NCBI GenBank assembly: GCA_040080835.1 | Contig: JBEBHP010000020.1 | Coordinates: 5,900 to 69,899, forward strand | Source of the DNA: Micropepsaceae bacterium | GTDB taxonomy: Bacteria; Pseudomonadota; Alphaproteobacteria; Micropepsales; Micropepsaceae | Length of the DNA: 64,000 nt | Direction of reading: 5' to 3' | Shown here: piece after piece, positions 11,772 to 62,081 of the stretch | Layout of the letters: each line of letters begins with the position of its first letter | Numbering within the stretch: position 1 is the stretch's first letter | Made by a program: the position numbers and the translations under genes | Notes under the pieces: generated by a model | The model's input: the letters and a program-made list of their open reading frames with translations, nothing else | Told to the model about the DNA's origin: nothing | Database searches by the model: none

Positions 11772-13607
11772 ATGCAACGCAAATTGACCGTCATCCTTTC
11801 AGCAGACGTAGTGGGCTATAGCGGTCTGATGGAGCGCGACGAGGCGGGGACGCTTTCGCTTCTGAAAGCGAACCGAACGTCCGTGTTCGATCCGCAGGTC
11901 GCAAAACATGGCGGACGGCAATTCAAGCTGATGGGCGACGGCGCGCTTGTAGAGTTCGGCAGCGTGGTGGCGGCTGTGAATTGCGCACTCGCGATCCAGG
12001 AAGCGACGGAGAATGCCAAAGGTTTGCGCTATCGTATGGGCATAAATTTGGGCGAAGTGATTGTCGAGGGTGACGACATTTACGGCGAAGGCGTCAACGT
12101 TGCGGCGCGCATTCAGGCACTGGCGCCCGTTGGGGGCGTGGCGTTGTCGAAGATGGTGCGCGATAACATTGATGGCAAGATGGCTTGCGTCTTCGAAGAC
12201 ATGGGCGAGCACAGCGTCAAAAACATCGAACGGCCAGTGCATGTGTTCAAGGTATTCGCCGTTCAACACGAAGGTCAAAAAGTGGAAGGCCCCCGCAAAC
12301 TCTCGATCTGTGTGCTGCCCTTCGCCAACATGAGCGATGATCCGCAGCAGGAATATTTTTCAGACGGAATCTCGGAAGATATCATCACCGATCTGAGCAA
12401 AGTGTCCGCGCTGGGCGTCACCGCGCGCAACACGTCGTTCCAGTTCAAGGGCAAGAGCGTCGATGTTCCGCAGGTCGCCCGTCAGGTCAAAGTGAGCCAC
12501 GTGCTGGAGGGCAGTGTTCGCAAGGCTGGCGGCCGTTTGCGCATCACGGCGCAGCTCATCGATGGTCGATCGGGCGAGCATGTTTGGGCCGAACGGTATG
12601 ATCGTGACCTCAATGACATCTTTGCGCTTCAAGACGAAATCTCCGAGGCCATCGTCAAGGCGCTGAAGCTGAAGCTGTTGCCAGAAGAAAAGACGGCGAT
12701 CGAAGCGCGTGGGACAGACAACGTCGATGCCTACAATCTTTATCTCATGGCGCGCCAATATTACGTCACCGGCAATTACGGCGATGCCAGGCGGGAGGAG
12801 GCAATCGTTCGCCTGTGCAAGCGTGCCACTGAAATCGACCCTGGCTACGCGCGCGCTTGGGCGCTGACGGCGCTGGCACAAAACTGGCAACGCTATTACT
12901 ACGGCAGCGTGGGCGACGGAGGCATGGCTTCGGCCGAAAAGGCGTTGGCGCTCGATTCAAATCTTTCCGAAGCGCATGGCGTAAAGGCTGGCATCTTGTT
13001 CGAAGCCGGTCGCCTGGCGGAGTCCGCGGCTGAGCTTGGCATCGCGCTGCGCCTCGACCCCGAATCCTATGAGGTCAACCGCGTCGCGGCGACCTTGTAC
13101 TATCGCCAAAAGCGGCTCGACGACGCCATTCGCCATTTCGAAAAGACGACGGCGCTGCTGGAAACCGACTTCAATTCGCCGGGCATGCTGATCAGCTGTT
13201 ACACTGCGACCGGCGACAATGCTGCCGCGCGGCGCGTAGCGCAACTGTCACTCACGCGCGCGGAAAAGGCGCTGACTCAGGATCAAAGCAACGGCGCGGC
13301 GATGGGTTTCGGGGTCGGCGCGCTCGCGGCCTTGGGCGAAGTCGAACGCGCCAAGGAGTGGATGGCCCGCGCGCTGCTGATCGATCCCGACAACATGAAC
13401 ATGCGCTACAACTTCGCTTGCGCCGCGGCCATCGACCTGAAGGAACCAGAACTGGCTCTCGATCTGATCGCTCCATTCCTCGCCACAACCACGATCGACT
13501 TCCTGAACCATGCCAAGGCCGATCCGGACCTCGATCCTCTGCGCGGCGACCCTCGCTTCAAGACCATGATCTCCGCCGCTGAGGCGAGGTTGGCGAGGAA
13601 AGACTGA
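11772..13607 (+). CDS. class III adenylate/guanylate cyclase fused to TolB_N-like and TPR domains
   Basis: N-terminal CHD domain (LTVILSADVVGYSGLME...KLMGDGALVEF...GEGVNVAARI). It is followed by the ICVLPFANMSDDPQQEYFSDGISEDIITDLS motif and C-terminal TPR-like repeats. Confidence 0.85.
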   Translation: MQRKLTVILSADVVGYSGLMERDEAGTLSLLKANRTSVFDPQVAKHGGRQFKLMGDGALVEFGSVVAAVNCALAIQEATENAKGLRYRMGINLGEVIVEGDDIYGEGVNVAARIQALAPVGGVALSKMVRDNIDGKMACVFEDMGEHSVKNIERPVHVFKVFAVQHEGQKVEGPRKLSICVLPFANMSDDPQQEYFSDGISEDIITDLSKVSALGVTARNTSFQFKGKSVDVPQVARQVKVSHVLEGSVRKAGGRLRITAQLIDGRSGEHVWAERYDRDLNDIFALQDEISEAIVKALKLKLLPEEKTAIEARGTDNVDAYNLYLMARQYYVTGNYGDARREEAIVRLCKRATEIDPGYARAWALTALAQNWQRYYYGSVGDGGMASAEKALALDSNLSEAHGVKAGILFEAGRLAESAAELGIALRLDPESYEVNRVAATLYYRQKRLDDAIRHFEKTTALLETDFNSPGMLISCYTATGDNAAARRVAQLSLTRAEKALTQDQSNGAAMGFGVGALAALGEVERAKEWMARALLIDPDNMNMRYNFACAAAIDLKEPELALDLIAPFLATTTIDFLNHAKADPDLDPLRGDPRFKTMISAAEARLARKD

Positions 13608-14271: not shown

Positions 14272-15039
14272 CTAATGCTCAATATTGTAATCAATCGTCA
14301 CCACCACACGAGCCGTCTTTGAGATTGTGCTCTTGTCGTACGTGCCGCCATAGCCATAGTCGCTGGAATCCACACTGGCACCCGCCGGCAGGATGTAGAA
14401 GGCACCTTGCGAGGCCGAACGCATCGCGCCCACAGTGGCGTTACCGTTCTTGGCGAATTCCTGCGCGCGCTTTTGCGCATTCTGCGTGGCAGCACCAATC
14501 AGGGACATCTTGATATCCTCGAGGCTCGAGACCAGGAACGATGGGCTTTCATAATGCACGGGGTGACCCTCGCCCTCGAACTGCAGAATGGCCTTGTGCG
14601 CCGCTTCGACGGCTGGCAGGTCCCGGCCCGTGACGAGAACATCCTGCGCCGCGTTGAAGCCGCGCTGGACCTGGCGCGTGCGCCCGCCTGGCAGTTCTTC
14701 ATCGACGAGGTTCGGCGTGACGCTCTCGTTGCCGTTCTTCACCGCGTCCTTGGCAAAGCCTTGTGCGGCAAGAAAGGCGTCGAGGGCAGGGCGCTCCTTG
14801 CGCAGCTTCGCCAGCGCGTCTGCAAACGTGGCACCCTGCACGCGCAGACCAACTGTCCATTCGGCGTAGTCCGCCTCCACCGGCTTCTCTGCCAGCCCTT
14901 TGACCGAAATGCTCTGTTTGCCCGCCCCGATCTGTTTGGCCTGGATGCCAAAGATGAAAGCGGCCAGCGACATGCCAAGCGCCAGCAGTACACCCAGGAT
15001 CACGACTGCCTTCGAATTGTCCAACGTCATGCGGTTCAC
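14272..15039 (-). CDS. SIMPL (DUF541) domain periplasmic protein
   Basis: 255 aa with an N-terminal membrane anchor and a typical SIMPL layout (ISVKGLAEKPVEADYAEWTVGL...ARVVVTIDY). Confidence 0.75.
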   Translation of the reverse strand: MNRMTLDNSKAVVILGVLLALGMSLAAFIFGIQAKQIGAGKQSISVKGLAEKPVEADYAEWTVGLRVQGATFADALAKLRKERPALDAFLAAQGFAKDAVKNGNESVTPNLVDEELPGGRTRQVQRGFNAAQDVLVTGRDLPAVEAAHKAILQFEGEGHPVHYESPSFLVSSLEDIKMSLIGAATQNAQKRAQEFAKNGNATVGAMRSASQGAFYILPAGASVDSSDYGYGGTYDKSTISKTARVVVTIDYNIEH

Positions 15040-15319
15040 TCCAGTTAGGTCCTTGCATCGATGTTGACGCCAGAATCATGGGTGAATTACGCAGACTTTG
15101 TGGCGGAATAGCGAGCCCGCCGATACCTGCCATGCGGCACTTGGGCTGACACGGCTCGCCGGCGAACGCTTGTTGCCGCGGAACACTCAAACTAGACTGG
15201 ATTGCGCTTCGCGTAGTGACACTTGTGAAAACCGGGTGGAACGAACCGGCGAGCGCTTCGTGGTCGCCACAATGGTCACGAACCAACACAAGACTGCTAA
15301 CACGGGACTGGAGGAACGA

Positions 15320-15619
15320 ATGAACAGAACGGTACTTTTGATTGTCGCGGTCGTTATCGCTGCGGGTGGAGCTTACTGGTACATGAATCGGAAGGCTGCG
15401 GATGCTCCGGCCGACCCGGCAGCAGTGACGGATCCGGCTGCGCCTGCCGCAGATCCGGCGGCTCCGGCCGACCCTGCAGCTGCTCCTGCAGATCCGGCTG
15501 CGGCACCCGCAGATCCGGCGGCCGCTCCAGTGGACGGAGCAGCCCCTCCGGGTGATCCGACCGCACCGGCGCAGCCGGTAGCCCCGCCTCCTCCTCCAGG
15601 CGATCCCACGAATCAATAG
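15320..15619 (+). CDS. membrane-anchored Pro/Ala/Asp-rich repeat protein
   Basis: GGAGGA Shine-Dalgarno 6 nt upstream of the ATG. One TM helix (VLLIVAVVIAAGGAYWY) is followed by PADPAAA-type repeats and a PPPPP tail. Confidence 0.55.
   Translation: MNRTVLLIVAVVIAAGGAYWYMNRKAADAPADPAAVTDPAAPAADPAAPADPAAAPADPAAAPADPAAAPVDGAAPPGDPTAPAQPVAPPPPPGDPTNQ
15404..15532 (+). repeat. in-frame tandem 18-21-nt repeats (unit gcagatccggc[gt]gc..., P-A-D-P-A-A-A)
   Basis: The word gcagatccggc recurs at 15449, 15488 and 15509, with related units on either side. Confidence 0.7.
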
Positions 15620-15729
15620 CCGAGGCACGATTTGACAGTTCTTGTGGCCGGCCAAAATGCCGGCCACATTTGTTTGTTTGGGGCGCCTTGCTACAATGGC
15701 CACCGAAAGGAGCCCATCAAATCTCGCGC

Positions 15730-17742
15730 ATGAAGTGGCTTCTGTCCGAACTGCAACGCCGACAGGTGACCCGTGTCGCTGCGAGTTACGTCGTCGCGAG
15801 CTGGATCATGCTCCAGGTCGCCGCATCGCTTGAAAACGCGCTCATGCTTCCGGCGTGGTTCGACACTGCGGTGCTGTACCTGCTGATCCTCGGCTTCCCG
15901 GCTGCCATTACCGTGTCCTGGATGTTCGAACTGACGCCCGAGGGGATCAAGCGCACCGTCGGGTTCGGAGACGGCGAACCAGCCAAACCGCGCGTCACCG
16001 ACTGGATACTGGTAGCGATGGTCATCATCGTCAGCGTGGTAGCTGGCGTGATGACGTTGTCCCCACGCGTGAGCGACCTCGCGCCCGGCGACCGGTCCAT
16101 CGCAATACTTCCGTTCGAAAACCGCTCGCAAATCAAGGACGATTCCGAATACGGCGACTGGTTGTCGGAACTCATCAGCAGCCTCTTGGGAAAGGCCAGC
16201 AATCTTCGCGTCATTTCGCAGACCTCGGCGTCTGTCTTCAAGGGCAAAGCTGTCGCCCTACCTGAGATCGCCAGGCAGCTCGGCGTGTCGTTGATCATTG
16301 AAGGCAGTGTGCGCAGTGAGGGCGACGATATGGTCATCAGTGCCCAGCTGATCAACGCAGCAACCGACACGCAGGTTTGGGCAGAGGTGTACGAACGCAA
16401 GACCGACAACGCATTGGGCGTCCAAAGCGAAGTCGCCGCCAGAGTGGCCGTCGCGGTTGCCGCGGCTTTGGATGTAACGATCGCCAGTGGCGAGCAGCAG
16501 GCTCTCAATCCGACGGCCAAGCCGAAGGCGTTTGAAGCCTACCAGAAGGCGCTGAAGCTCTACCGCACGACAACTGAAGCAAATGTGCGCAGCGCGCAGC
16601 GCTTGCTGAACGACGCCGTCGAAACCGATCCCGATTTTGCATTGGCCTGGGCGCTGTTATCGCGCGTCCATTCCTATTTCTATTTCAACCGCACGGATGC
16701 AACCGAAGGCCGGCGTGGCGCGGCCGGGCAGGCGTTGGCGCAGGCGCTCCGCCTGAAGCCCGACCTCGCTGAAGTTCTGCTCGCTGACGCCTACTTCGAA
16801 TACTGGGTGAAGCGCGACTATGAAGGGGCTCGGAGCCGGTTTGAAACGCTGAGCATGAAGTGGCCCAACAATGCAGATGTCCTGACTGCGCTCGCCAGCA
16901 TCACGCGCCGCCAGGGCCGATGGGGTGAGAGCAAAAACTATTTCGAGCGCGCCATCGCGATCGACCCGCTGCGCCCGGGCAGGCGTGTGAAGGCCGCCGA
17001 ACTTGCTTTCGCGACGCGCGACTTCACGGGTGCCTTGCATCAGCTCGACGCCTCGTTGGAGTATTGGCCGGAGGCGCCCGACAAACTTCCCTTCATCGCC
17101 AAGAAGGCGTTGATCTATCAGGCGCTTGGCCGCCTGGACGACGCCACGGTTCTGCTCGAAGGTCTTGATCCGCAGCCGGATGGCGAACTCGTTGAACCGA
17201 TCGTCATCCAGGCCATCCTGCGCCGGCAGTACGATGACGCGATCCCGCTGCTCGTATCTCTTCTCAAGCGTGATGAAGCCGAGGGCTCGGTTGGTCGCAC
17301 GTCAGTGGATCTGAATCTCTATCTCGGAAACCTGAGGCGGCTCTCCGGCGATGCAAAAGGCGCGAGGGCAAATTACCGGCAGGCGCTCGATGAACTGCGC
17401 ATGGACTTGGCGAAACAGCCTGAAAACGCCGACGTGCATTCCTATTTGGCATTGGTGTATTGCGGTCTCGGTGATCGCGCCCAGGCCACGAAGTTTGCAG
17501 CGCTTGCCGTGAAGACCGTGCCGGTCGCAAAGGACGCCTTGAGCGGCGCATACTATCTGGATGTGCAGGCGCGCGTCTGGGCGCGCTTGGGCGATCGGAA
17601 CGCCGCGATCGCCGCAATCGAATCCCTGATGAAACTGCCCGCGCCCTTGCCGCTGACGCCAGCGCTGCTGCGCCTGGATCCTGACTTCGACAAGCTCCGT
17701 TCAGATTTGCGCTTCAAGGCGCTGTTGAACGGTGTCCCCTGA
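15730..17742 (+). CDS. membrane-anchored TolB_N-like / TPR protein (cyclase-less paralogue of 11772..13607)
   Basis: Start placed at the ATG giving MKWLLSELQRRQV. It has TM helices, an IAILPFENRS...LISSLLGK...LIIEGSVR..LINAATDTQVWAEVYE module and long TPR-like repeats. Confidence 0.8.
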   Translation: MKWLLSELQRRQVTRVAASYVVASWIMLQVAASLENALMLPAWFDTAVLYLLILGFPAAITVSWMFELTPEGIKRTVGFGDGEPAKPRVTDWILVAMVIIVSVVAGVMTLSPRVSDLAPGDRSIAILPFENRSQIKDDSEYGDWLSELISSLLGKASNLRVISQTSASVFKGKAVALPEIARQLGVSLIIEGSVRSEGDDMVISAQLINAATDTQVWAEVYERKTDNALGVQSEVAARVAVAVAAALDVTIASGEQQALNPTAKPKAFEAYQKALKLYRTTTEANVRSAQRLLNDAVETDPDFALAWALLSRVHSYFYFNRTDATEGRRGAAGQALAQALRLKPDLAEVLLADAYFEYWVKRDYEGARSRFETLSMKWPNNADVLTALASITRRQGRWGESKNYFERAIAIDPLRPGRRVKAAELAFATRDFTGALHQLDASLEYWPEAPDKLPFIAKKALIYQALGRLDDATVLLEGLDPQPDGELVEPIVIQAILRRQYDDAIPLLVSLLKRDEAEGSVGRTSVDLNLYLGNLRRLSGDAKGARANYRQALDELRMDLAKQPENADVHSYLALVYCGLGDRAQATKFAALAVKTVPVAKDALSGAYYLDVQARVWARLGDRNAAIAAIESLMKLPAPLPLTPALLRLDPDFDKLRSDLRFKALLNGVP

Positions 17743-19879: not shown

Positions 19880-20830
19880 CTAGTTTTTGACCCTTGGCTT
19901 TGCCTTCGCCGCTTTCGCCGCAGCCTTCGTGTCTTCGCTGGCCATGTAGTCGATCAGGGCGGTTGCTTCCTTCTCGCCTAGGCCAAAATTGGGCATCGGC
20001 ATGTCCTTGTACTTGGCCCTGAGCGCGGTTGCGACCGGATCACCTTCTTCGATCATCTTGTCGGGCTCTCTGATCCAGCGGCTCATCCAGTCATGCGGGC
20101 GCGATGACGCGACCCCAAGAAGGTCCGGACCCAGCCGGTCGCCGCTGCCCATTGTGTGGCAGGATACGCAGCGCGTTCGGAAGAGATACTCGCCCCGTGA
20201 CTGCGGCGGCAGTTGCCTTGCCACGGAGTAGTCCTGCTTCGTCCCCGCAATCGAGGTGGCATAGTTCGTCATGCGGTCAGTCAGCAGGTTCGCAAGCACA
20301 ACAGGGTCGTCATAGACCGAGCGCTTGATCCACTGGCCGGTGGTCTCGTTGGCCACCATCACGCTGGTGTCATGGTCGCGTGGCTTGCCCGGCTCGAATA
20401 CGCGCATGGCGAGCTTCTGCTGGATCAGCTTGATGTCTTCCTTGGCGCCCGTCAGGAACAGCCATCCCGGCTTCAGGCCAAAGGTGTGCATGTAGGTCTT
20501 GAGGACCTCGGGCGTGTCATGGTCCGGATCAATGGTGATCGAGTACATGTGGAAGTCCCGACCCACCCTGTCGCCAAGCTGAGCCTGGACCTGCGACAGC
20601 TGCGCCGTGTCCGCCGGGCAGATGTCCTTGCAGTTCGTATAGATGAAGTTGATCGTGACGATCTTGCCCTTCAGCAGGTCGTCATAGAACCGGTACCTGT
20701 TGCCATCCTGGTCGGTCAGTTCGACATTGGGGAAGTAGTTCCCGTGCCACTCGGCCGCAAGCGTCCAGCCAGCTGAACACAGCATCAGCGCAAGGGCCGC
20801 AACCAGGCGAACAGGCAGCTTGTGGCGCAT
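19880..20830 (-). CDS. SCO1/SenC copper chaperone fused to mono-haem cytochrome c
   Basis: Signal peptide, then a thioredoxin-fold SCO motif (FIYTNCKDICP, a CxxxC) with YSITIDPDHDTP. The C-terminal class I cytochrome c domain has CVSCH and a GPDLLGV...MPMPNFGL context. Confidence 0.85.
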   Translation of the reverse strand: MRHKLPVRLVAALALMLCSAGWTLAAEWHGNYFPNVELTDQDGNRYRFYDDLLKGKIVTINFIYTNCKDICPADTAQLSQVQAQLGDRVGRDFHMYSITIDPDHDTPEVLKTYMHTFGLKPGWLFLTGAKEDIKLIQQKLAMRVFEPGKPRDHDTSVMVANETTGQWIKRSVYDDPVVLANLLTDRMTNYATSIAGTKQDYSVARQLPPQSRGEYLFRTRCVSCHTMGSGDRLGPDLLGVASSRPHDWMSRWIREPDKMIEEGDPVATALRAKYKDMPMPNFGLGEKEATALIDYMASEDTKAAAKAAKAKPRVKN

Positions 20831-20849
20831 TCAGGTCTTTCCCAAAAAG

Positions 20850-20877
20850 GTCATGGCCCGCGCGAGCGAGCCATGAC
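20850..20877 (-). other. stem-loop in the MCO-SCO spacer
   Basis: gtcatggc / gccatgac forms an 8-bp inverted repeat with a 12-nt loop inside the 69-nt intergenic spacer. Confidence 0.3.
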
Positions 20878-20899
20878 GGATGTTCAGATGCAAGCCCTA

Positions 20900-23173
20900 T
20901 CAGTTTGCCGTCGGCAGTCCAAATGAAGGCTCATAGAAGGTGCCTTCCCAGGTCTGTCGCGGAGTCGGGATCGCAAGCGTCTGGCCAGGGTTCACCGAGT
21001 CCCACCGCAGAAGCATGGCATGGTCTTCATGCTGCGTGTTGTGGCAGTGCTCCATGTAGGTACCTGCAAATTCCCGGATGCGGATCGCAAGATCGACCGT
21101 TGCCGTCGAGTCGGGTGATACACCGATGCGGTACACGTCCTTGCGGGCGAAGGTTTCCCAGATCGGCGGGGCGACACCGCCACGCTGCAGGATCCGGCCT
21201 TCTTCGAAATGGATGTGCACGGGATGGCTCCAGCTCTGGCCCAGGTTGATCAGGTGCCAGATCTCAAGCGAACCTTTCTTTGGCGCCGCAGAGTAACGGT
21301 GGGGGTCCATGCCAAAGCCCTGGCCGCCGTCCGTCTTGATGGTCCACGGCGCAGCGTCGGTCGCATTCGCGCGGCCAAACTCGAACGTGCGCTGGCGGGC
21401 TGTCGACAGTTCTGCTGGCGTCATGACCGGCAGCGGGATCATCTGCTTCAGTCCTGCAACATACTGGGCAGGGTCCATGCTGAGGTCACTGTAGGTGTAG
21501 CTTGTCGTGTCGACACGGAACTCCATGATGCGTCCAACAGCCGGATCACCTGCGTAGGCGCCGCTGATGATGTCGGCCAGCGGAATTTCCCTGTTCGGAC
21601 CCATGCCGTTCACATGCTCAAGCAAGTTCACCATGTAGAGCTTGGTGCCGTTGGCAAGGTTCTTGAAGTCGATGACGATGTCGTAGCGCTCTGCAATCCC
21701 TTGCGTCGGCAGGTCCTGGCTCTGCGCGTTCGGGAACGGAACCGTGTGCTGCATCAGGTTGCCGTCGTTGGCCACCATGTAGTACGGCACGCGCACGCCT
21801 GCAGCCGTCACGATCGCCAGCTTGAAATAGCGCGAGACCGAGCCGTTCAGGATGCGGAATCGGTAACGTCGAGGACGAACCTTCAGGAATGGCTTGTAGG
21901 TCCAGTTCACGAGGACCCGGTCACCCAGGAAGCCATCCGTGTTCAGCGGATTGAATGTCAGCTGACCATTGGCGTCCCAGGCCTTGTCGGCGACGAGCAG
22001 GTTGACGTCGTAGTCGCGGTTGCCCCAGTCAAGTGCCGTGCCGCTTGGCAGACACATGTTCGGGTTGGCGGCGTTGGTGTAGTTGCACTTCAACCCCTCG
22101 CGACCGCGGTCGATAGATGAGTAGTAGTTCATCATCGCGGCGCTGCCCTTGTAGACATTCTGCGCCGTGAAATCGAGCATGTGGTCATGGAACCAGTGCG
22201 TGCTCATGGTTTCTTTCCAGTCACCACGCAGACGCTTGATGCCGCCGGCACCGTCCGGCATTCCGGCCCAGTCGGTGGTTGCTGTCGTGTTGATGTTGTC
22301 ATAACCCGCGATGATCATCGGCCAGCGATAGTCGTAATACTGGCCAGGAAAGAAGTAGGCGGCGGTATAGCCGTCGCTCTCTGCCGGGTTGTGACCATTG
22401 TGTTCGTGTGTCGACAGCGTGTGGAAGCCGAATCCGTTCGTCGCCGACGCATCAATCGGCAGCATGTTGTAGTGACGGAACAGGACGGGCTCGCCATAGC
22501 GCGCCATCAGCAGCTTCGGTGGCATGGTGCCGTCAAAGGTCCAGACGGAGTTAGCCTGCTGTGCAGGGAAGTTTGGATGGAACCTGACAGCGGTATTGGT
22601 GTTGGTTCCACCGTGATTGTAAAGTCCGCCTGGCTTGAATTCACCGACGGCATAGTGGTGTCGCTGCAGTGAATCTCTCAGTCCAAGGTTGGTGCGCGCG
22701 CCCGCTGAAGCCGACTGGAAGTAGACCTTGGGTGGAAATTCCGTCAGCCGCTGGTGGGCAAAATACTCGCCGCTCGGGCGCCCTTCAGCTGCGCTCTTGG
22801 CAAGCGCCTGGCCAATGCAGGTACCAATCGTTGCGGCCCACGGGTTGGGCTTGGTGGTGTTCGCCAGCCTGGTCATCCCCGGGCTCAGCGCCTGCTTCAG
22901 GAACGTGTCGATCGACGCAGACGCAGGTCCAAGCGTGCAGCTCTGCGGTGCTGGTACCGGCGTACACGTCGCGCAGGTCGTGCCGATATACGGCTTCGTG
23001 CCGAATTCCTCGAACAGCATCATTTCCTGTTCGAATTCACCCGCGTTGAACAGCGGGCTTGCTGGCAAGCCTGTCGGAATGCCTTGCGCGAGCGCCGAGC
23101 CCACGCCGAATGAAGAAGCGCCGCTCGCCAGCAGAATGGCACCCAGCGTCTTCGAGAATTTGTTCCTGACCAT
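20900..23173 (-). CDS. multicopper oxidase (CotA/bilirubin-oxidase-like, 3-domain with long N-terminal extension)
   Basis: All four copper motifs are present: HTLSTHEHNGH, HWFHDHM (22178..22198), HPVHIHFEEG and HCHNTQHEDHAML. There is a Sec-type signal. The start is placed at the ATG at 23173, preceded by AAGGGA; the ORF track begins at a TTG at 23188. Confidence 0.9.
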   Translation of the reverse strand: MVRNKFSKTLGAILLASGASSFGVGSALAQGIPTGLPASPLFNAGEFEQEMMLFEEFGTKPYIGTTCATCTPVPAPQSCTLGPASASIDTFLKQALSPGMTRLANTTKPNPWAATIGTCIGQALAKSAAEGRPSGEYFAHQRLTEFPPKVYFQSASAGARTNLGLRDSLQRHHYAVGEFKPGGLYNHGGTNTNTAVRFHPNFPAQQANSVWTFDGTMPPKLLMARYGEPVLFRHYNMLPIDASATNGFGFHTLSTHEHNGHNPAESDGYTAAYFFPGQYYDYRWPMIIAGYDNINTTATTDWAGMPDGAGGIKRLRGDWKETMSTHWFHDHMLDFTAQNVYKGSAAMMNYYSSIDRGREGLKCNYTNAANPNMCLPSGTALDWGNRDYDVNLLVADKAWDANGQLTFNPLNTDGFLGDRVLVNWTYKPFLKVRPRRYRFRILNGSVSRYFKLAIVTAAGVRVPYYMVANDGNLMQHTVPFPNAQSQDLPTQGIAERYDIVIDFKNLANGTKLYMVNLLEHVNGMGPNREIPLADIISGAYAGDPAVGRIMEFRVDTTSYTYSDLSMDPAQYVAGLKQMIPLPVMTPAELSTARQRTFEFGRANATDAAPWTIKTDGGQGFGMDPHRYSAAPKKGSLEIWHLINLGQSWSHPVHIHFEEGRILQRGGVAPPIWETFARKDVYRIGVSPDSTATVDLAIRIREFAGTYMEHCHNTQHEDHAMLLRWDSVNPGQTLAIPTPRQTWEGTFYEPSFGLPTAN

Positions 23174-23238
23174 GTGACGTCCCTTCAATTTTCTAAGGCA
23201 GATGAAGCATCTTCAGTACTGCCTGATGTCCCCGTTTT

Positions 23239-23269
23239 GGCGCCGCCGGTGCCCCACACCGCCGGCGCC
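23239..23269 (-). terminator. GC-rich stem-loop between peroxidase and MCO genes (possible attenuator or partial terminator)
   Basis: ggcgccgccggtg / caccgccggcgcc are 13-nt arms with one mismatch and a 5-nt loop. There is no U-tract on the transcribed strand. Confidence 0.35.
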
Positions 23270-23285
23270 CATGCCGTTCTCTCAA

Positions 23286-26200
23286 TCAAAGATGGAAGTC
23301 TGTGCTGACCAGGGTCGGCTCAGCCGGTTGCACATAGCCGCGCAACAGGATTTCAAAGTCAGCAGACAGGTTGTCGTTCAGGTTGCCCTGGATCAGTGTC
23401 GAGTCGAGCGAACCATTGCCGTCCGAGTCAAACAGCTGCCACCTGATCTGGCCGGCTGCCAGTGTGGCGCCCACCGTCGGATCGCTGAACGCCGCACTGC
23501 CGATGAAGTCGAAAGCCTGGTTGCCCGAAACCGTGGTGTTCGCATCGATGCTCGTGAGGTCGATGATGTCACCCTCGGCATGGTGGAAGTCCGTGATGAT
23601 CGACCGCCCGCCCCCGGTGCCGACGCCACCGCTCGACAGATACTGGAAGATATCGGCGTCGATCCCACCCGTCATCGTTTCAACACTGTTGCCAGCGATG
23701 AACGTGTCAATGCCGCCACCGCCGACAAACGTCACCGCGTTGGCGCCTCCCGCGGTACGACCCGTGAAGGTGTCGTTGCCCGAACCGCCGATGAAGGTTT
23801 CGATTGTCGACTGCTGCAAAAAGGCTGAAAGAACGTCGGTACCGATGTCCGTTCCGGTCGCGACCGCAAAGAACAGGTTTCCAATCACGTTGTTCAATTG
23901 CACCGTAACCGCATTCGTCGCAGCACTCATGTCAAGTGTGTCCGCACCTGCGCCACCATTGTAGGTATCGTTGCCGTCTCCTACGAACGCGATGAAGGTA
24001 TCGTTGCCATCGTCACCCGCAAGCGTGTTGTTGCCGGTATTTCCGGTGAGTACGTTTGCCAGGTTGTTGCCGGTGCCGTTGATGTTGCCTGTTCCCATCA
24101 GCGTCAGGTTTTCGACGTTGTTTCCAATCGTATAGGTGACGAACGATTGGACTGTGTCGGTGCCTGAACCCGCACCAGCGGCTTCGGTAATCGTGGTCAG
24201 GCCCGTCCCGCCGGTGTTGTGGCGCACGATGTAGGTGTCGTTGCCGAGACCGCCGATGAGCGTGTCCGTACCAGCCGTACCGCCATCCAGCGTGTCATTG
24301 CCGCCATTGCCGCGCAGCGTGTTGTTTGAGGAACTTCCGACAATGATATTGTCGTCGACACTGCCAGTGACATTCTCGATGCGGAACAGCAGGTCAGCGC
24401 CTGTAAGCGCACTCGTCGCCGTCCCACCCTGCGTGAGGTCGTTGGTGTTCGTCAGGTCGACATTCGTGTTACCGGCCGTGGACGCCATGTTGTAGGTGTC
24501 GGTACCCGTGCCGCCATCGTAGGTATCGTTGCCGTCACCAGTGCTTGCAAAGAACGTGTCGTTGCCAGCGCCACCCAGGACAAAGTCATCGCCCAGACCA
24601 GCGGTAATGCTGTCGTTGCCACCATTGCCGAAGATAAGGTCGATAGCAGCAGTGCCGGTGATGTTGTTGCCGCTTGCGGCATCGATGATGTAGTGCACCG
24701 CCGACCCATTCACGGTGTTCGTGTCGCCGTTGCCATCTGTATATGTAGACGTCACGCGGACAAGCCTTCCCGCCGCGCCGGTCGTGCCCGCCGGATTGAA
24801 GAACCGGGTGTCGGCACTGATCTGCGGCGCCGGAACCGGCAGCCAGGTCAAGCCATTGTCAGTTGACGTTTCCCAGACCAGCGTCGTCAGCTCATCAAGA
24901 ATGCCGCCGTCCGGGTCCTGCAGAGTGGAAAGTTGCTGCATCTGTGGAGCATTTGCTCCCACGACGCCTGTAACCGATACGTCTCCGATCAGGATCTCGT
25001 CCGTCACCGCAGGCGACAGGTGTCCTGGCGCGCCATCGTTGATGTTGCCCTGACCGTCCTCGTAGGTGATCGCCACCGAGATCGTATGCCCGATGTCGGT
25101 TTGCTGAACGATGTAGTCAGCGCCAATTGCTCCAGAAATCTCCACGCCGTCCCTGAGCCACTGAAACTGCTCGGAACCACTGGTGATGTCACCATCTGGA
25201 TCAAAGCCCAGGAACGCAGACAGTGAACCACCATTTGCAGCAGTTCCAGTCAGGAACGCAGGCGCCGTCCCGTCATCGACAGGCGCGACCGTGATGTTGA
25301 CCGTCTTTTCAGCACTCTTCAGCAAGCCGTCAAAGGCATAGTACTTGAAGCTGGCTGTACCCGCGAAGTCCTGCGTTGGCAGGAACGTGAACGTGCCGTT
25401 GTTGTTGAGAGTGACGGATCCATTTACCGCAGAACCAGGCACCAGCTTGTAGGCCAACGGATCGTTCGTCGGGTCCTGAGCCGCCAGGACGACACCGTCG
25501 AACAGCGTGTCTTCCAATGCGCCTGTGAGATCCACCGGATCCGCGCTCAGGAAGAATGGTGCACCACCATTGCTTATGACGTTGATGATGAAAGTGTCCG
25601 TCACACCCAGTTCTGTGCCAGGCGACCCGGGCGTGCCGACATCCGTTGCGGTGACAGTGATGCTGATCGGTCCAGTGACATTCACCGTGCCGGTGATGTT
25701 CGCACCCGAGACGCCGCCCAATCCATCTGGAACCAGGGTGAACGTCAGTCCGTTTGCACCAGCCGTACCATCCAGCACATGACCATTCGACGCCAGTTTG
25801 GCCGTATAAATCAGGTTTGTGGACGCGGTCTCGTTGTCCCCGAAAGTGCTTGTGATTGGCAGGAACAGGTTGATCGGAACACCAGTGCGGGCGCCCGTAT
25901 CCGGCAAGCCCGCAGGATTTTGCTGCTGCACCACAAACGGTGCGGTATTGACAGCCAGGTTTGGAAGCAGCAGTGCGGTCGGTGCCGAATTCACCGTTTC
26001 GTGGAACCCTTTGCCGTCCACAAAAGTCTCAACGACACGCAGCGCGTTTCCAAGCACCGCGTTCGTTGGGTTGAACGTCAGGCTGTCCGTGTTGGGGATG
26101 TTGACCCACTGCAAGCCACCGCCTGCGGTGACCATCTGCTGCTGCCACTGGAAATGCACCGATCCAGGTGCGATACCGTCCGAGTCAGTAACCGTCGACA

Positions 26201-29200
26201 CCGCCACTAGCGGAGTCCCGACAAAGGCATTGACCGGCGTCGCAGGGTTGCCATCATCATCGGTGATGATGAGAGAGCCACCAGGCAACGCGTTGTTTAC
26301 CGGTCCGTCTCCGATGTTGATGGTCACGTCCGCGAACTGAAGGCGCTCGATGTTGCGAACCTTGTCCACGCCGTCAGAGATCAGCACGCCGCCTCCGATG
26401 CCGACCGTCGCATTGTGCGTGATCGTGTAGAAGCCTTCTGCGTCCGGCGCGAAGCTGATCGAGTAATTCGAGAACACGTCACGATAGACAGCGGTATCGA
26501 TGTCACCGTCCGTGATGTCCCAACGGATTTCGCGGATGATGTCGGCACCAGCCACGCCGTGCTGAACCAGGTCAACGTGCAGCCACGCATCACCATCGAT
26601 GATGTCGTTGCCACCGCGGCCTGTGATCATGTCACTGCCATCGCCACCAAGAAGAATGTTGCCGTTGTTGAAACCGAGCGGATTCGTTACAGCGGCGATT
26701 GGCGTATCCGGCGCGAAGTTCGCCGCTACACCGCCTGCGAAGAATGTGTTGAGGTTGAAGATCAGGTCAACGTTTGTCAGCTCGTTCATGACACCGGCGG
26801 CACCGCCCCGGTCCTCTGTCCCCTGCATGAAGTCGTCAAACTTCGTGCCGCTGGCAGCTTCAGTTTCGATAAAGAAGTCACGCACCGCGTCACCGGCCAG
26901 CTGTTGCTGGTTCGGAATGAACTCGCGACGCTCCATGTCCAGGCTGACGCCGTACTGTTCTTTTTCGAAGTCGGCCCAGTCAAAGCCCAGCAGTCCGTTA
27001 AACTTGTCGAAGCCGCCTTCGCCCAGCATGATGTCGTCGCCGCTGAAGCCGACCATCTTGTCGCCAAAGGTGCCACCGTCGAGGACGTCGTTGCCCGCGA
27101 AAAGAGGCACTTGACCCGTTGGTGCGCCAGTGTCGCCGACCAGTCCGTCGCCGCCTGCACCACCTTCAAGCCAGTCGTCACCTTCGTTGCCGATCAGTGC
27201 GTCGTCGCTGTCACCACCGATGAGAATGTCGTTGCCGGCACCGCCCTGGGCTTCGTCTCCCAATGTCGCATTGCCGGTTTCAACGTAGTCGTTGCCGGCT
27301 CCGGCAAAGATCAGGTCGTCGCCCTGGCCACCATTGATCCAGTCGTCGCCCTCTTCGCCGTGAATGACGTCGTCGCCGGCGTTGTCGACGATCGTGTCGT
27401 TGCCGGTACCGCCATAGAGGAAATCGTTGCCGTTTCCACCGTCAATCCAGTCATTGCCCGCATCACCCCAGACGGTGTCGTCGTCTGCATGTCCCGCAAG
27501 CAGCCGGTCGTCACCCGCAGTGCCGCCAAGCACCATCGTGTTGCCGAAGAAGTTGTCATCGCCAATGAAGTGGACTGTTCCATCAGGCAACACTTCAACC
27601 AACAGCGCACCTGAAACCGGATTGCGAAGCCAGGTCGAAGAATCCGTTGCGATTCGGTGTCCGTTGATGTCGAGAAGGAAGTCGCCGTTGATGTCCTTCT
27701 GGAAGTACGACCCGGCTTCAATCGTATATTCCGGCGTCAGGAAGATGCTCGCTGGAATGTGTCGCGCGCCCGTATTCGCGATGATCATGTCCGCGAATGA
27801 GTTGTTTTCGATCTGGAATCCGAAGTCCATGCCTTCGATGCGCGGCAGGTAATAGAGCCGGTCGGCATCCTGGAGCGCTTCCAGTTGGGTTTCGAAGATG
27901 AAGTTGAAAGTTGAGCCAAGCAGGCCACCAAACAGGTTCTGCTTTTCGGCCAGACCACCGATCCACAAATCGATCGTATCCAGGCCCGTGACCGAACCCG
28001 TCGCCCACATCGCAGCGTGCGTCACGCCGTCGTCGGCAGTGCCCGGCAAGAGATCCGCACCAACGTCAATGTTCATCAGAGCGTTGTTGATGTGCGACCC
28101 GCCAGCCCACGTGTCGTCGGCCGTATTCAGCTTCGCATCACCGCCGACAACGCGGGTGTTGTTCGCCCAGTCGCCAAGGCTGTGCATGAAGTTGTAGGCA
28201 TCCTGGTGCTGCGCATCACCCGACGCACTGGCAGGGTCTGATCCCATCGTGATCAGATCCAAGGCTGCAGCGCGTTTTGCCAACATGGTCGATGCTGACG
28301 TGATCGACGAATGCGAGCCATAGGCCGCAATGAAGTTGATCAGTGAACCTTCATGCTTGAGGAATTGGCCAAACTCGAGCCAATTCGCATAGGGTTTCAG
28401 CGTTGCATCGTTCGTCGCGTCGTAGATCTGGGCGCGCACGAGGTTCAATGGCGCAACGCCGGTATCGCGGCCACGTGCGATGTTCAACGCGGCAAGGTCG
28501 AGCGGCAGACCCAAAAGGTTGTTTCTCAAGGCGCCGGTGACGAACTCGTCGATTTCGCTACCGATCTGGTGCGTCGCGCCCTGGATGATTTGCTGAGTAC
28601 CATCCGTGCCAAGACTGGCGAACAGCAGCGGGTTGGTAAAGGCCTGGATCAATCCCACATCTGTCAGAACGGGTTGACCATCGGGCCCGATTACCATCGT
28701 ACCGTCTGAGTTCGTTTCGAATATCGGAACGTTTTCGTCGAGCATCGAATGGCCAAAACGGTATACCGCATTGGCAAACTCGGACGTGATCGCCGGATCG
28801 AGGTGAATGTCGTTGTTGCCGAACAGGTGGATGGTTGGCGCTACCTTGCGGGCGAATTCTTCGAACACGAGATGCTGGTATTGCGTTTCGGTACCGAATT
28901 TCGCCGCCTGGAAGATGCGTTCGCCATTCCATTCGCCGGCCTGGATGCCATCCGCAAGGTTGGTGCCGGCCAAGACCCATTCGGAAGCAAAAGCGCTATC
29001 GCCGTTTGCAAGCTCTGCGCGAACCATGTCCTTGATCTGGTTGACCAGGCGATTGTGTTCGCTGTGGAAGATCTCGTGGACGGTTATCAGCGCAATGTTT
29101 TCGTTTACGCGACCATCACCGGCGATGTAGTGCGCATCCAGAAGTTCGTTGTCGTAGGTGCCAGCGCCTGGCGTGTTGCCGGCCAGTGTATCGCCGTCCT

Positions 29201-30608
29201 GCGCCAGCAGCACATGAGTCTGATTGTCGAACGGCGAGGCCGTCGCTGCCATGTCGTTGATGAAGGCATGGTCCGTGAATTGAACCGTACCACCTGTGGC
29301 TGTCTGAATTTGCGCAATGGTCAGCGGAGCGCTGGGATCAAGCACAAACGCAACGATGTTTGCACCCACCTTCACAGAAATCTGAACGTGGCCGGTTGCT
29401 GCATCTGGCGTGAAGTTGCCATAGGCATCCGACAGGAGAACGGGAACGTTGCCGACGTACTTGTCTTCAAGTACCAGACCGAACTTCAGGGCGTTCGCCT
29501 TCACATCGCTCCACGTCGCCATGCCCGAGTTGTCATCGGCATTGCCGAGAACTCCATCCTTGCCGGCCGCATGCTGAAGCAGGTTGCCGGTCGTGTGCAG
29601 CTTACCGTCGATGCCTAGGATGTATTCGCGCAGGAACACCTGGTGCGAAGGATGCGAAGAGTAGGTCTGGTTCTGGTCGACGAAAGGCGAAGTGGTGTTG
29701 ATGTTCTCGTGAATATCGTCGGACGTTCCGATGATACCGTCAGCGCCCGCCGATACAGTCAGGTTGGTCGCGCGCGTCAGCGCCATGAACTGCAGATTTG
29801 GATTTGTAATTTCATCGCCGGTTCCGGCAATGCCGTCCGGACCCAGTGTGATCAGTGGGTCATCTGCTGCAAGCGGGATGAAGACTGTTCCCTGGCTGCC
29901 CTTGGTGATGAGATCCAGGCCGTGATCGAAGAACTGACCGAAGAACGTCATCCAGCTGTTGAACGGCGCCGAGAGGCCTGCGTCCGGTGTCACGTTTCCG
30001 ATGAACAGGTTGACTTTGTCGGCGGGCGAGAGGTCGTCAGAGTTTCCTGAAATGCCATCAGCGCCCCACAGGTCGTCGACATTGCCTGCGATTCCGTCAA
30101 GGCCCGCGCCCCATGCATCGTCGGCGGTACCAAAGACGCCATCTGCACCGGGTAGAATCAGGCCACTGGGGTTAGACGAGAAGTCGGTGTAGCCGTCGCC
30201 GAGCTGTGCGGCGAAATCCTGTGCGGCTTGAAGGGCTGCGGGGTTGTTTGCACTGATGTCCGAGATCAGATTTGAAATTGTGCGTGGGGCGCCATCAACA
30301 ACATTGACCCCCATGATTGCGCCCGGTGCGGTTGACGCATAGGTCATGAAATCGCCTGCAACACCGCGATGGGCGTCGAAGATGGTTTCGTCGACATTGA
30401 CCGTGCGGAAATACTCTTGCGTGTAGGTGGCGAAGGGCTGGTCGGCCGACCCAAATGTGCTTTGCCCGGGAACCGAGTTGTTGTTCGTTCCCGCAACCTC
30501 TCGCAGACCAAAAGCCAGATGCGGGCTGACCGGAGGTGTGTTGGTCTCAGCCATCTGGATCTGCGTCAGCAGGTACTGAAGGTCATTTTTTGTAAATGTA
30601 ACAGCCAT
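23286..30608 (-). CDS. giant secreted animal-type haem peroxidase with RTX Ca-binding repeats (MopA-like)
   Basis: The distal-His motif [10 protein letters not shown] maps to 29913..29942. [22 protein letters not shown] is also present. The proximal-His motif RFGHSML maps to 28740..28760. [15 protein letters not shown] and DLWIGGLAE complete the peroxidase signatures. Two blocks of GGxGxD nonapeptide repeats follow, then three ~60-aa W-x-W beta-domain repeats and an uncleaved C-terminal T1SS-type tail (..[11 protein letters not shown]...STDFHL). The ATG at 30608 is preferred over the TTG at 30614. Confidence 0.95.
   Translation of the reverse strand: [2440 protein letters not shown]
23580..24677 (-). 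repeat. RTX nonapeptide repeat block 2 (ORF-track aa ~1980-2345)
   Basis: [27 protein letters not shown]...[10 protein letters not shown]...AGDDGNDTF...[10 protein letters not shown]. Confidence 0.9.
27000..27536 (-). repeat. RTX nonapeptide repeat block 1 (ORF-track aa ~1027-1205)
   Basis: [47 protein letters not shown]..., consecutive GGxGxDxUx units. Confidence 0.9.
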
Positions 30609-30991
30609 GGTCAAACACCCCTAGAATTTCCGGGCTTTCGCGCCTTTGGTTACAGCTCTGCAACCTTTGAGCCCAAAGCGCGCACCCGATTTGTTGAATC
30701 TCGACGGCACAATTCCCGCACCGCGCAAACTCAATCTGCAACCTGACGGGAAGCTGACTTGTTAGTGCGACGGCCTGTCGCACTTCGGGCTTGGAATAAA
30801 CTGGAAGTGCCATTTTTTTGGCTGGAAAATAGGAAAACCATTGATGGTCTCGGTGCCAAAAAAGCCAGAAAAAATCAGGGTTTTTTGAGGACTGTTAGAG
30901 GGTGGGAAATGGGTGCCAATTGCGAATGTCTCATATGTGCAGCACGGCTTCGTCGAATAGGTATTAATACTAATTAGTAGGGATTAATTCC
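30609..30991. promoter_or_regulatory. AT-rich divergent control region (peroxidase operon <> atypical response regulator)
   Basis: 383 nt, visibly lower in GC. It contains homopolymer runs (T7 at 30813, A6 at 30858, A6 at 30869, T6 at 30881). There is a 9-bp inverted repeat, ttttttggc (30814-22) / gccaaaaaa (30855-63). Three AT palindromes (attaat, taatta, attaat) lie at 30963-30988, directly before the GTG start. Confidence 0.5.
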
Positions 30992-31729
30992 GTGCGCGTG
31001 CTTTTGGGCGAAAATCAGCGACAATTCGGACTGCAGTTGCGGCAGCGGCTGCGTGCACAATGCGAGGTGGACTTCGCCAGAGACGTGCCAAATCTGAACA
31101 GTTTTCTACTGCAACGTGCTTACGGGTTAGTCATTTTGGCTATGGACGTACCTAAAGAAGACAGAATTAAGCTCATTGAGTTGTGCAAGCAGTTCTCGCA
31201 GAAAACAGCCATCATGATCGTTACCGATCCCGCGCCGGTGCATGAGCGCGTGCAAGCCCTCGAAGCAGGTGCGGACGATGTGTTGATGCGGCCCGTGCAT
31301 CTGGATGAGCTGGTCGCGCGCGCCAGGGCGCTGATGCGCCGTGCGGACGCGTCACTGCTGGCAAAGATACGCGTTGGCAATCTTGAACTTGCTGATGACG
31401 GCGAGATCTATTTCCACGGCGCGCGAGCAGTGTTGCAGCAGGCCGAGCAGAAAGTGCTGTCAATCCTGGTTCGACGTGCGGGTCGACTGGTCACCAAGTC
31501 GATGATCGACCGGGCAGTAACGGGTGTCGACAGCGAAGAGCTGTCGTCCAATGCCATCGAGCAGCGAATGTCGCGCTTGCGTAGGATACTCGACACGTCG
31601 AACACCAACGTGCAGATCAACACGATCCGCGGCTCAGGCTATATCCTGGAGGCAAGGCCGTTGCACTCTCGGGTCAATGAAGACCACGAGGACCAGGAAG
31701 CGACGGAGATGCGGGTCCACGGCGCTTGA
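30992..31729 (+). CDS. OmpR/PhoB-family winged-helix regulator with pseudo-receiver domain
   Basis: GTG start. The C-terminal wHTH is clear (RVGNLELADDG...LSILVRRAGRLVTKSMI...RMSRLRRIL...INTIRGSGYILE). The receiver fold is retained, but the acidic pocket DD is EN, the phospho-acceptor position is Ala (LVILAMDVP, codon 31139..31141) and the conserved Lys is Arg (DDVLMRPV). Confidence 0.85.
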   Translation: MRVLLGENQRQFGLQLRQRLRAQCEVDFARDVPNLNSFLLQRAYGLVILAMDVPKEDRIKLIELCKQFSQKTAIMIVTDPAPVHERVQALEAGADDVLMRPVHLDELVARARALMRRADASLLAKIRVGNLELADDGEIYFHGARAVLQQAEQKVLSILVRRAGRLVTKSMIDRAVTGVDSEELSSNAIEQRMSRLRRILDTSNTNVQINTIRGSGYILEARPLHSRVNEDHEDQEATEMRVHGA

Positions 31730-54445: not shown

Positions 54446-55123
54446 TTACTCCCGACCCAACACCGCCGCCCTGAGCGCCATCAACAGCAACGGCGTCCAG
54501 CTCGCAAAAAAGCCGAGCGACTGCAGCCAGATCCACTTGAGGTCAACGGCCATCATCGCGACGCCGATGGCAGGCAGGCAGAGCAGCACGCCGAGGATCG
54601 GGCGGCGCGCCTCTGATGTGAAACACAGCCCGGCGAGACACAGTCCGTTGAGCCCCAACGCCGCGAACTTGATCCACGCCGCATTGGCCGACGTCGCAAG
54701 CGCTTCAGTGCTGGGCGACAGGTCGGGCGTGTAGGCAAGCAGGCTCAGCGTTTCGACATAGTCGGCGGCGCATGCGACCAACGCTGCTACAATCGCCGCA
54801 AGCGCCAGCGGCACGAGCCGCCCCACTGAAAGGAAGAGCGCTGCAAATACCGCAAACGCCGTATACGAAGGTATGAAAGCATGAATATCGAGCGTGTTTA
54901 CGGCGTCCACCGCAGCAATGATCTTGCCACGGCACGCGCTTTCGACCGGACCGAATATCGCGAGCAGCGTATCAATGCTGCGTGCCAGCTCGAAGCGGAT
55001 GACCGCTTCGCCAGCGTTGCAAGCCTGGGCGGCCTTCACCTCACCAAGCATTTGAAAAGTGGCGACCGTCCCAAGCGAGGCGATACCCGTGATGGCGGTG
55101 AGCAGGGCCCAGAACCGTGTCAT
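54446..55123 (-). CDS. polytopic membrane protein (hypothetical)
   Basis: 225 aa with about 6 hydrophobic helices. No motif recognised. Confidence 0.55.
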   Translation of the reverse strand: MTRFWALLTAITGIASLGTVATFQMLGEVKAAQACNAGEAVIRFELARSIDTLLAIFGPVESACRGKIIAAVDAVNTLDIHAFIPSYTAFAVFAALFLSVGRLVPLALAAIVAALVACAADYVETLSLLAYTPDLSPSTEALATSANAAWIKFAALGLNGLCLAGLCFTSEARRPILGVLLCLPAIGVAMMAVDLKWIWLQSLGFFASWTPLLLMALRAAVLGRE

Positions 55124-61367: not shown

Positions 61368-61507
61368 GCTGCAAAATCTCCACCGCAGGGTATTCAGAAT
61401 AGCTTGGGGCGACATTACCCAAAAGTCAGGTTGGGCATAAACTGCGCGGTACAAAGCGTCAGTGTCTATCCGCCAGTCAATGCATTCGGCGGTCATCAGG
61501 CGGGCGC

Positions 61508-61996: not shown

Positions 61997-62081
61997 GATG
62001 GTGCCGTTGGGAAGACTGTAATGGGAAAAGGCGATGCCGAATGACGTACTGCCAATATCGGGCATCGCCTCCGGAATTCAA

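Follow-up and report, generated by a model that had tools for sequence, protein, structure and literature searches.

Why Mn(II)-oxidizing bacteria carry several unrelated manganese (Mn) oxidases is a question that has been raised in earlier work (PMC5906577; bioRxiv 10.1101/2022.11.10.515945). The closest described systems are the multicopper oxidase (MCO) McoA and the animal-type heme peroxidase MopA of Pseudomonas putida GB-1. GB-1 strains with only McoA or only MnxG oxidize both Mn(II) and Mn(III)-ligand complexes, and MopA is thought to be limited to the one-electron step from Mn(II) to Mn(III) (PMC5906577). The GB-1 MopA has two heme domains (PMC9765421), and its gene lies ~680 genes away from mcoA (PMC11409713). 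Directly after mcoA, GB-1 carries a SCO1/SenC gene, and this pair is the only part conserved in strains MS-1 and DSV-1 (PMC11409713). McoA and MopA co-occur across genomes more than expected (bioRxiv 10.1101/2022.11.10.515945). Another MCO, MoxA of Pedomicrobium ACM 3067, was reported to group with non-Mn MCOs (PMC8218464). Because the genes of P. putida GB-1 are scattered and oppositely regulated, any cooperation between the two enzymes would be hidden in that organism. Here, we describe a locus in which both enzyme types are encoded side by side, in a 64,000-nucleotide (nt) stretch of a Micropepsaceae metagenome-assembled genome (GCA_040080835.1, contig JBEBHP010000020.1, positions 5,900 to 69,899), referred to below as the window.

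The window contains three intact, co-oriented open reading frames (ORFs) on the minus strand. They encode a MopA-like, animal-type heme peroxidase that is predicted to be secreted (23286-30608; 2440 amino acids [aa]), an McoA-type MCO (20900-23173; 757 aa), and a fusion of a SCO1/SenC domain with cytochrome c (19880-20830; 316 aa). Their lengths and Pfam E-values exclude the possibility that they are chance artefacts. The initial annotation, made from the DNA letters, had described three consecutive minus-strand genes with these domains, and our ORF reading and Pfam searches bear out both the arrangement and the domain calls. We postulate that the cluster is a two-enzyme, extracellular Mn(II) oxidation module, a reading to which we assign a probability of roughly 0.55.

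The 2440-aa length of the peroxidase is counted from an ATG; a TTG at 30614 gives the longest ORF. An_peroxidase matches it with an E-value of 4.5e-51 in three stretches, which we read as one heme catalytic domain at aa ~200 to 960 (27729-30011). This region holds a distal-His motif (FGQFFDH, aa 223), a catalytic Arg/Glu motif (GDGRVNE, aa 497), and a proximal-His motif (RFGHS, aa 617); each is present once, which points to a single heme domain. Lactoperoxidase and peroxinectin A in the PDB match the same segments as An_peroxidase, and the catalytic motifs align with those of lactoperoxidase. HemolysinCabind matches in seven stretches (E-value, 9.5e-47), and 12 GGxGxD repeats fall into two RTX blocks. 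The first block, at aa ~1057 to 1155 (27144-27440), has repeats at 1057, 1066, 1093, 1122, and 1149, and the second, at aa ~2004 to 2300, has them from 2012 to 2296 and lies with the C terminus in 23286-24599. NCBIfam serralysin and RTX models also give partial matches to the C-terminal region. The protein ends in DFHL, presumed to be a type I secretion signal, and has no N-terminal signal peptide. Between the RTX blocks lies an immunoglobulin (Ig)-like domain at aa 1692 to 1776 (25281-25535; Big_9, E-value of 1.8e-11; Cadherin_5, E-value of 4.3e-11). A relationship between this domain and the Ig-like tail of Pseudomonas McoA was considered and rejected, since comparison revealed no similarity.

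Over ~970 aa, the heme region shares 44% identity (683 bits) with the N-terminal heme domain of a 3588-aa peroxidase of P. putida (CP039371.1), and it is 54 to 75% identical to that of the peroxidases encoded upstream of MCO orthologues in alphaproteobacterial relatives. By domain content and catalytic residues, the 2440-aa protein fits a MopA-like, animal-type heme peroxidase.

The MCO of 757 aa starts at an ATG preceded by a GAAGGG ribosome-binding site; its longest ORF starts at a TTG at 23188. Pfam identifies Cu-oxidase_2 (E-value, 3e-10) and, weakly and below threshold, Cu-oxidase_3. The four copper motifs are HEHNGH at 256, HWFHDH at 326, HPVHIHFEEG at 650, and HCHNTQHEDHAM at 709, and they match the patterns HxH, HxH, HxxHxH, and HCHxxxHxxxxM. 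All motifs that the initial annotation had quoted for the MCO and the SCO–cytochrome c protein were found at sensible positions. The MCO is 52% identical (800 bits) to a P. putida protein, P0157 (CP039371.1), in an alignment of aa 29 to 755 with aa 101 to 921 that covers the whole catalytic region, and the copper motifs are kept between the two apart from conservative flanking changes. We reached the Pseudomonas MCOs through a search with the 95-aa fragment of PDB entry 2L4D, which returned short fragments only, then through the Pseudomonas loci around them to intact MCOs. Among these loci, one (L084) ends at a contig edge, and another (L085) belongs to a frameshifted long-read assembly in which the MCO was stitched by hand to reach the intact proteins.

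At the P0157 locus, the MCO gene is followed by genes for a SCO–cytochrome c protein, a GGDEF/EAL protein, and a phosphonate-binding protein. The GB-1 mcoA operon begins with four genes in that order (PMC11409713), and we take P0157 to be McoA-type because the two orders match. McoA occurs in two lengths in Pseudomonas: the P. putida group has a form of ~1130 aa that carries Ig-like (Big_9/Cadherin) domains at its C terminus, and the P. fluorescens group has one of ~935 aa that lacks these domains. More than 4450 homologues of the window MCO were found, many of them labeled "manganese oxidase" by the Joint Genome Institute (JGI) and some database members labeled "copper efflux oxidase." Relatives occur in at least 595 of the species-representative genomes scanned, and the 80 closest of these come from Alpha-, Gamma-, and Betaproteobacteria, Planctomycetota, Myxococcota, Verrucomicrobiota, and other groups. 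A loose twin-arginine (Tat) pattern was detected in 10 of 120 homologues; signals across the family are Sec-type, as is the signal peptide predicted for the window protein.

The database names raise the alternative that the locus serves copper homeostasis, with a CueO- or PcoA-like cuprous oxidase and a periplasmic copper chaperone. SCO proteins do bind copper, and CueO is the best NCBIfam match of the MCO, but that match is weak (88 bits against a cut-off of 525) and homology to McoA is far stronger. Furthermore, the MCO has neither a Tat signal nor a Met-rich segment (at most 4 Met per 40 aa), and the window contains no cop, cus, or pco genes and no copper sensors. We therefore consider a role in copper homeostasis very improbable. 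The initial annotation had named grouping with CueO or CopA enzymes as an outcome that would count against it; by sequence comparison, the window MCO is instead a member of the McoA family and not CueO-like.

The third protein combines SCO1-SenC at aa 37 to 152 (E-value, 3e-24) with Cytochrom_C at aa 212 to 298 (E-value, 7.5e-09), behind a predicted Sec signal peptide. Its motifs are CKDIC at 67, DPDHDTP at 101, CVSCH at 221, and MPMPN at 277; the second is the SCO family signature, and the last two fit the CxxCH and axial Met of a class I cytochrome c. C67, C71, and H153 are the probable copper ligands of the SCO domain, the histidine being assigned by spacing and not from a structure. The cytochrome c domain matches 2L4D, "SCO1/SenC family protein/cytochrome c," with an E-value of 1.7e-23 over 91 aligned residues. 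The 2L4D protein, from P. putida KT2440, has the same two-domain architecture, with the CxxxC plus His and the CxxCH plus Met also present in the window protein; the solved structure covers the Pseudomonas cytochrome c domain only. Banci et al. reportedly found in 2011 that the P. putida cytochrome domain can reduce the copper-bound or oxidized SCO domain, with no target cuproenzyme proven.

Among relatives with enough downstream sequence, 58 of 65, from many phyla, encode a SCO–cytochrome c protein directly downstream of the MCO (within 2.5 kb and on the same strand). One further locus (L042) has the pair as well and was missed by this stricter count, and a SCO1/SenC gene also lies directly downstream of mcoA at P. 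putida locus L087. The MCO and SCO–cytochrome c genes are thus a conserved core, and one that has already been described as a gene pair. Two Pseudomonas loci that belong to the putida group by similarity (L082, at 10001-10276, and L083) retain a 91-aa SCO–cytochrome c remnant with 98% identity to 2L4D. After the remnant come the GGDEF/EAL and integrase genes that belong to the mcoA operon, a sign that mcoA and most of sco were recently deleted. In seven relatives, including L001, L002, L003, L010, and L021, a ~520-aa methyltransferase (MethyTransf_Reg plus PKMT winged-helix) is encoded just 3' of the SCO–cytochrome c gene; it is missing from the window.

To count peroxidase linkage, we used MCO genes with at least 8 kb of sequence on both sides and scored a peroxidase heme domain in the locus (within 10 kb). 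A peroxidase was linked in 11 of the 34 relatives that could be fully evaluated. In a neighbor-joining tree, peroxidase-linked MCOs dominate the alphaproteobacterial clade to which the window belongs, and in the linked loci of that clade the peroxidase gene immediately precedes the MCO gene on the same strand, at a distance of no more than ~130 nt. Of the unlinked clade members, two (L006 and L015) are cut by contig ends, and two (L005 and L011) have full flanks yet no peroxidase gene. The claim that synteny is kept in relatives therefore stands in part: the gene order recurs, and the linkage of the peroxidase is specific to the clade. We conclude that the peroxidase is an add-on to the conserved MCO-SCO core, by a linkage that is clade-specific and recurrent and not universal.

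One of the clade members is strain U9-1i, a cultured Mn(II)-oxidizing alphaproteobacterial isolate whose genome paper named one MopA-like candidate and left the MCO unmentioned (PMC5122683). Its locus consists of a divergent response regulator and kinase, a 2291-aa peroxidase, a 769-aa MCO, and a SCO–cytochrome c protein. RAST annotated the MCO as "glycoprotein gp2," and U91I_01921, the MopA-like protein of the U9-1i paper, may be the peroxidase of the cluster. Other arrangements occur in distant lineages. Sphingomonas sp. CPCC 101669 has the order peroxidase, ABC transporter, HlyD, MCO, SCO, and P. putida CP039371.1 has a divergent gene for the 3588-aa, two-domain peroxidase, three type I secretion genes, mcoA, and sco. 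In Methylobacter luteus, a single gene separates the peroxidase and MCO genes, which share a strand, and in Methyloglobulus morosus the two are divergent. Duplicated MCO-SCO pairs, in tandem or flanking one or two peroxidase genes, were observed at L002, L009, and L010 plus L014 (the last two on the same contig, JAGOBA010000004.1), and a Planctomycetota contig (L053) carries three MCO copies.

An alternative hypothesis is that the neighbors are independent: mcoA-sco would be a self-contained unit, and the RTX peroxidase would be a separate secreted or adhesin-like protein that came to lie upstream by chance in this lineage. The genes are far apart in GB-1, where FleQ regulates MopA and the MCOs in opposite directions (PMC9765421), and most relatives carry the MCO-SCO pair without a peroxidase, as this explanation would have it; the stable hairpins in both spacers of the window, one of them terminator-like, point the same way. 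However, closeness is kept in at least four arrangements of distant lineages (the alphaproteobacterial clade, Sphingomonas, Methylococcaceae, and Pseudomonas), and McoA and MopA co-occur across genomes. Moreover, An_peroxidase is rare in bacteria; by a rough estimate, ~1% of genomes would have one within 10 kb by chance, against the 32% observed. The rarity of the peroxidase and its nearness to mcoA through rearrangements argue for a functional tie, and we regard independence as distinctly unlikely. Comparison of sequences and loci establishes the identity of the parts of the cluster, their homology to Pseudomonas proteins, and the conserved gene order.

No paper describing linkage of mopA and mcoA was found in the searchable literature, and a search for Micropepsaceae together with manganese oxidation returned nothing. 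The suggestion that the linked architecture was uncharacterized is accurate in that literature as far as the peroxidase linkage is concerned, but the MCO-SCO pair had been described (PMC11409713; PDB 2L4D). What is new here is the tight, conserved linkage of the peroxidase; each enzyme type and the MCO-SCO pair were already known. The initial annotation had also proposed Hyphomicrobiales for comparisons of gene neighborhoods, a choice that does not suit a genome of Micropepsaceae, to which exact protein matches assign the window.

Transcription of the cluster may be more complex than the gene order implies. The spacers between peroxidase and MCO (23174-23285, minus strand) and between MCO and SCO (20831-20899, minus strand) measure 112 and 69 nt, and the first has a GC hairpin (23239-23270), as had been noted; a second hairpin, in the 69-nt spacer, had gone unnoticed. 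This second hairpin resembles an intrinsic terminator, with a 12-bp GC-rich stem (20850-20877) followed by CUUUUUGG, and the spacer folds at -29.2 kcal/mol (z, -3.56). Because of this terminator-like hairpin, one transcript for MCO and SCO is not assured, and attenuation or separate transcripts are plausible. The whole 112-nt spacer folds at -43.4 kcal/mol (z, -2.98); no U tract follows its hairpin, which a terminator scan did not call. A looser screen for a hairpin plus a T tract flagged the mcoA-sco hairpin in 21 of 64 relatives, with the stronger cases mainly outside the Alphaproteobacteria. Terminator-like hairpins with T tracts between mcoA-type and SCO–cytochrome c genes were seen at L016, L044, L047, L049, L051, L052, L056, L057, L065, L068, L073, and L078. 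The recurrence of the hairpin in distant lineages suggests that transcription is attenuated between the enzyme and chaperone genes or that the two are transcribed separately.

Upstream of the peroxidase, a divergent intergenic region (30609-30991) that presumably holds the promoters separates it from a plus-strand gene for an orphan, atypical OmpR-family response regulator (30992-31729; Pfam Response_reg plus Trans_reg_C). Promoter searches of this region gave weak sigma-70-like matches only, in numbers that did not exceed those from shuffled sequence, and the repeats within it are short and not interpretable. One direct repeat (TAGGTATTAAT / TAGGGATTAAT, 30958-30988, 20 nt apart) lies immediately before the start codon of the regulator and could be a binding site or a chance occurrence. 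Aligned to PDB 1KGS, the regulator has Ala at the phospho-acceptor Asp (LVILAMDVP) and Arg at the conserved Lys, and its N-terminal acidic pair is replaced by E-N; it thus appears to be phosphorylation-independent. No histidine kinase gene adjoins it. Orthology to the regulators beside related clusters was rejected, as 26 to 35% identity amounts to family-level similarity only. The gene had been called a "private regulator" of the cluster: it is of the OmpR family and adjoins the cluster, but the missing Asp, the lack of a nearby kinase, and the low identity make a private role doubtful.

A further alternative concerns the substrate. The cluster could serve general extracellular oxidation of organic matter (phenolic, humic, or lignin-derived) or the handling of reactive oxygen species (ROS), with the MCO acting as a laccase, the peroxidase acting on organic compounds, and Mn at most a mediator. 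The closest solved structures to the MCO are bilirubin oxidase (E-value of 5e-38 in a partial alignment), followed by CotA laccase and CueO. Related metagenome-assembled genomes bear lake, peat, soil, and sediment sample names, and a Phenol_MetA_deg-like outer-membrane protein is encoded next to one related cluster. Roseobacter MopA-type enzymes act through superoxide, according to work cited in PMC5122683 and PMC5906577. All of this would suit oxidation of organic matter or ROS handling, but for both enzymes the nearest relatives with a studied function are Mn oxidases that were identified genetically, the same cluster is present in U9-1i, an isolate selected for Mn(II) oxidation, and the window contains no aromatic catabolic genes. 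We consider this explanation unlikely.

MCOs reduce O2 to water. For this reason, the "ROS coupling" that had been proposed is unlikely to run through H2O2 supplied by the MCO.

For the Mn(II) oxidation module that we favor, we infer the substrate, secretion routes, copper delivery, co-regulation, and cooperation of the enzymes as follows. The peroxidase would probably leave the cell through a type I secretion system whose genes lie elsewhere and would fold outside in a Ca2+-dependent manner. By analogy with MopA, it may carry out the oxidation of Mn(II) to Mn(III), using either H2O2 directly or superoxide as an intermediary. The MCO should arrive in the periplasm unfolded and copper-free, because the signals of its family are Sec-type and not Tat-type, and this would be the reason for a dedicated periplasmic SCO chaperone. 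The SCO–cytochrome c protein would load the MCO with copper, its thioredoxin-like SCO domain (C67, C71, and H153) holding Cu(I) and its cytochrome c domain supplying the electron that keeps copper or thiols reduced. With O2 as the oxidant, the mature MCO may then convert both Mn(II) and Mn(III) bound to ligands into Mn(III,IV) oxide. By analogy with the GB-1 enzymes, the chemistries of the peroxidase and McoA appear complementary, and the two linked oxidases might form a relay that takes Mn(II) to MnO2 by way of Mn(III). In GB-1, Mn oxidation requires cytochrome c maturation (ccm) genes, as cited in PMC13631088. This requirement fits a required cytochrome c domain, and the SCO–cytochrome c protein may explain it.

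Going further, we speculate that the alphaproteobacterial clade (freshwater and soil Micropepsaceae, Terricaulis, Hyphomonadaceae-like genomes, and U9-1i) has selected both Mn oxidase classes into one transcriptional module that works as an obligate relay, in which the peroxidase makes Mn(III) or superoxide and the SCO-matured MCO makes Mn(IV) oxide. This is a tentative proposal, about which we have considerable doubt. If true, it would be the first genetic evidence of cooperation, as opposed to duplication, between Mn oxidase classes, and it would account for the need for ccm genes.

Several observations weigh against interpreting the cluster as a two-enzyme Mn(II) oxidation module. No type I secretion genes were found in the 64-kb window. 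The Mn activity of the McoA family rests on Pseudomonas genetics, the "manganese oxidase" names being annotation only, and we infer the equivalence of P0157 to GB-1 McoA from operon content and not from the GB-1 sequence itself. The window peroxidase has one heme domain, against two in GB-1 MopA and its relatives, among them the one at P. putida locus L087; two heme domains, however, mark a Pseudomonas subtype and not the whole MopA class. Most fully evaluable relatives are unlinked, with a peroxidase within 10 kb in 11 of 34 only, and since the GB-1 genes are ~680 genes apart, linkage is not required for function. The terminator-like hairpin between MCO and SCO and the strong hairpin between peroxidase and MCO make separate transcripts possible. 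Finally, the regulator is atypical and not orthologous to those of relatives, and its link to the cluster is uncertain.

The rest of the window is ordinary chromosome, with flanking genes that include gmk, ksgA, pdxA, surA, lptD/F/G, pepA, ndk, metG, purM, and purN. A near-identity DNA search of a plasmid collection gave no match to the cluster, and a protein search of that collection returned distant MCOs only, at 44% identity or less and with no Pseudomonas entry among them. Two large TPR-repeat proteins are encoded a few kilobases from the cluster, at 11772-13607 and 15670-17742 (both plus strand), the first with an N-terminal adenylate/guanylate cyclase domain. Four ORFs had no Pfam match: 58426-60699 (minus, 757 aa), 14699-15703 (minus, 334 aa), 54446-55123 (minus, 225 aa), and 61215-62021 (plus, 268 aa). 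In the source record for 19880-31729, accessions run from MEQ1756125 to MEQ1756127, with a single protein number left between those of the SCO protein and the regulator. One of the two intervening ORFs, that of the MCO or that of the peroxidase, may thus have no protein record in the source, despite both being intact in the window.

On the evidence of its sequence, the cluster is a credible Mn oxidation module, within which the peroxidase and the MCO may cooperate. Its conserved, co-oriented form offers a direct genetic handle that is present in a cultured Mn oxidizer, U9-1i, and it recurs in rearranged form in Sphingomonas, methanotrophs, and some P. putida strains. The linkage thus gives a testable reason, in a culturable strain, for bacteria to keep several Mn oxidases. 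The SCO–cytochrome c fusion may be a dedicated copper-insertion factor for a Sec-exported MCO, and the McoA-type family, with its relatives in at least 595 species genomes, may outdo MoxA as an environmental marker of Mn oxidation.

The window peroxidase shares with MopA of A. manganoxydans SI85-9A1, Erythrobacter SD-21, P. putida GB-1, and Roseobacter AzwK-3b an An_peroxidase domain with the catalytic His, Arg, and proximal His. RTX repeats, a very large size, and the absence of an N-terminal signal peptide are likewise common to both. It differs from MopA in its Ig-like domain, in directly preceding an McoA-type MCO gene, and in that type I secretion genes are not adjacent. Compared with the ~1130-aa McoA of Pseudomonas, the window MCO has neither the N-terminal extension of ~100 aa nor the Ig-like (Big_9/Cadherin) domains at the C terminus, but both proteins have a Sec-type signal peptide and a SCO1/SenC–cytochrome c gene next on the same strand. 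Neither the downstream GGDEF/EAL and phosphonate-binding genes of the Pseudomonas mcoA locus nor MnxS/MnxR-type sigma-54 regulators are near the window cluster, which has the peroxidase gene directly upstream instead. In contrast to the window, U9-1i has a divergent response regulator and histidine kinase pair and a downstream methyltransferase. The order and orientation of the U9-1i cluster are nevertheless the same as in the window, with identities of 54% in the peroxidase heme region, 68% in the MCO, 57% in SCO, and 60% in cytochrome c.

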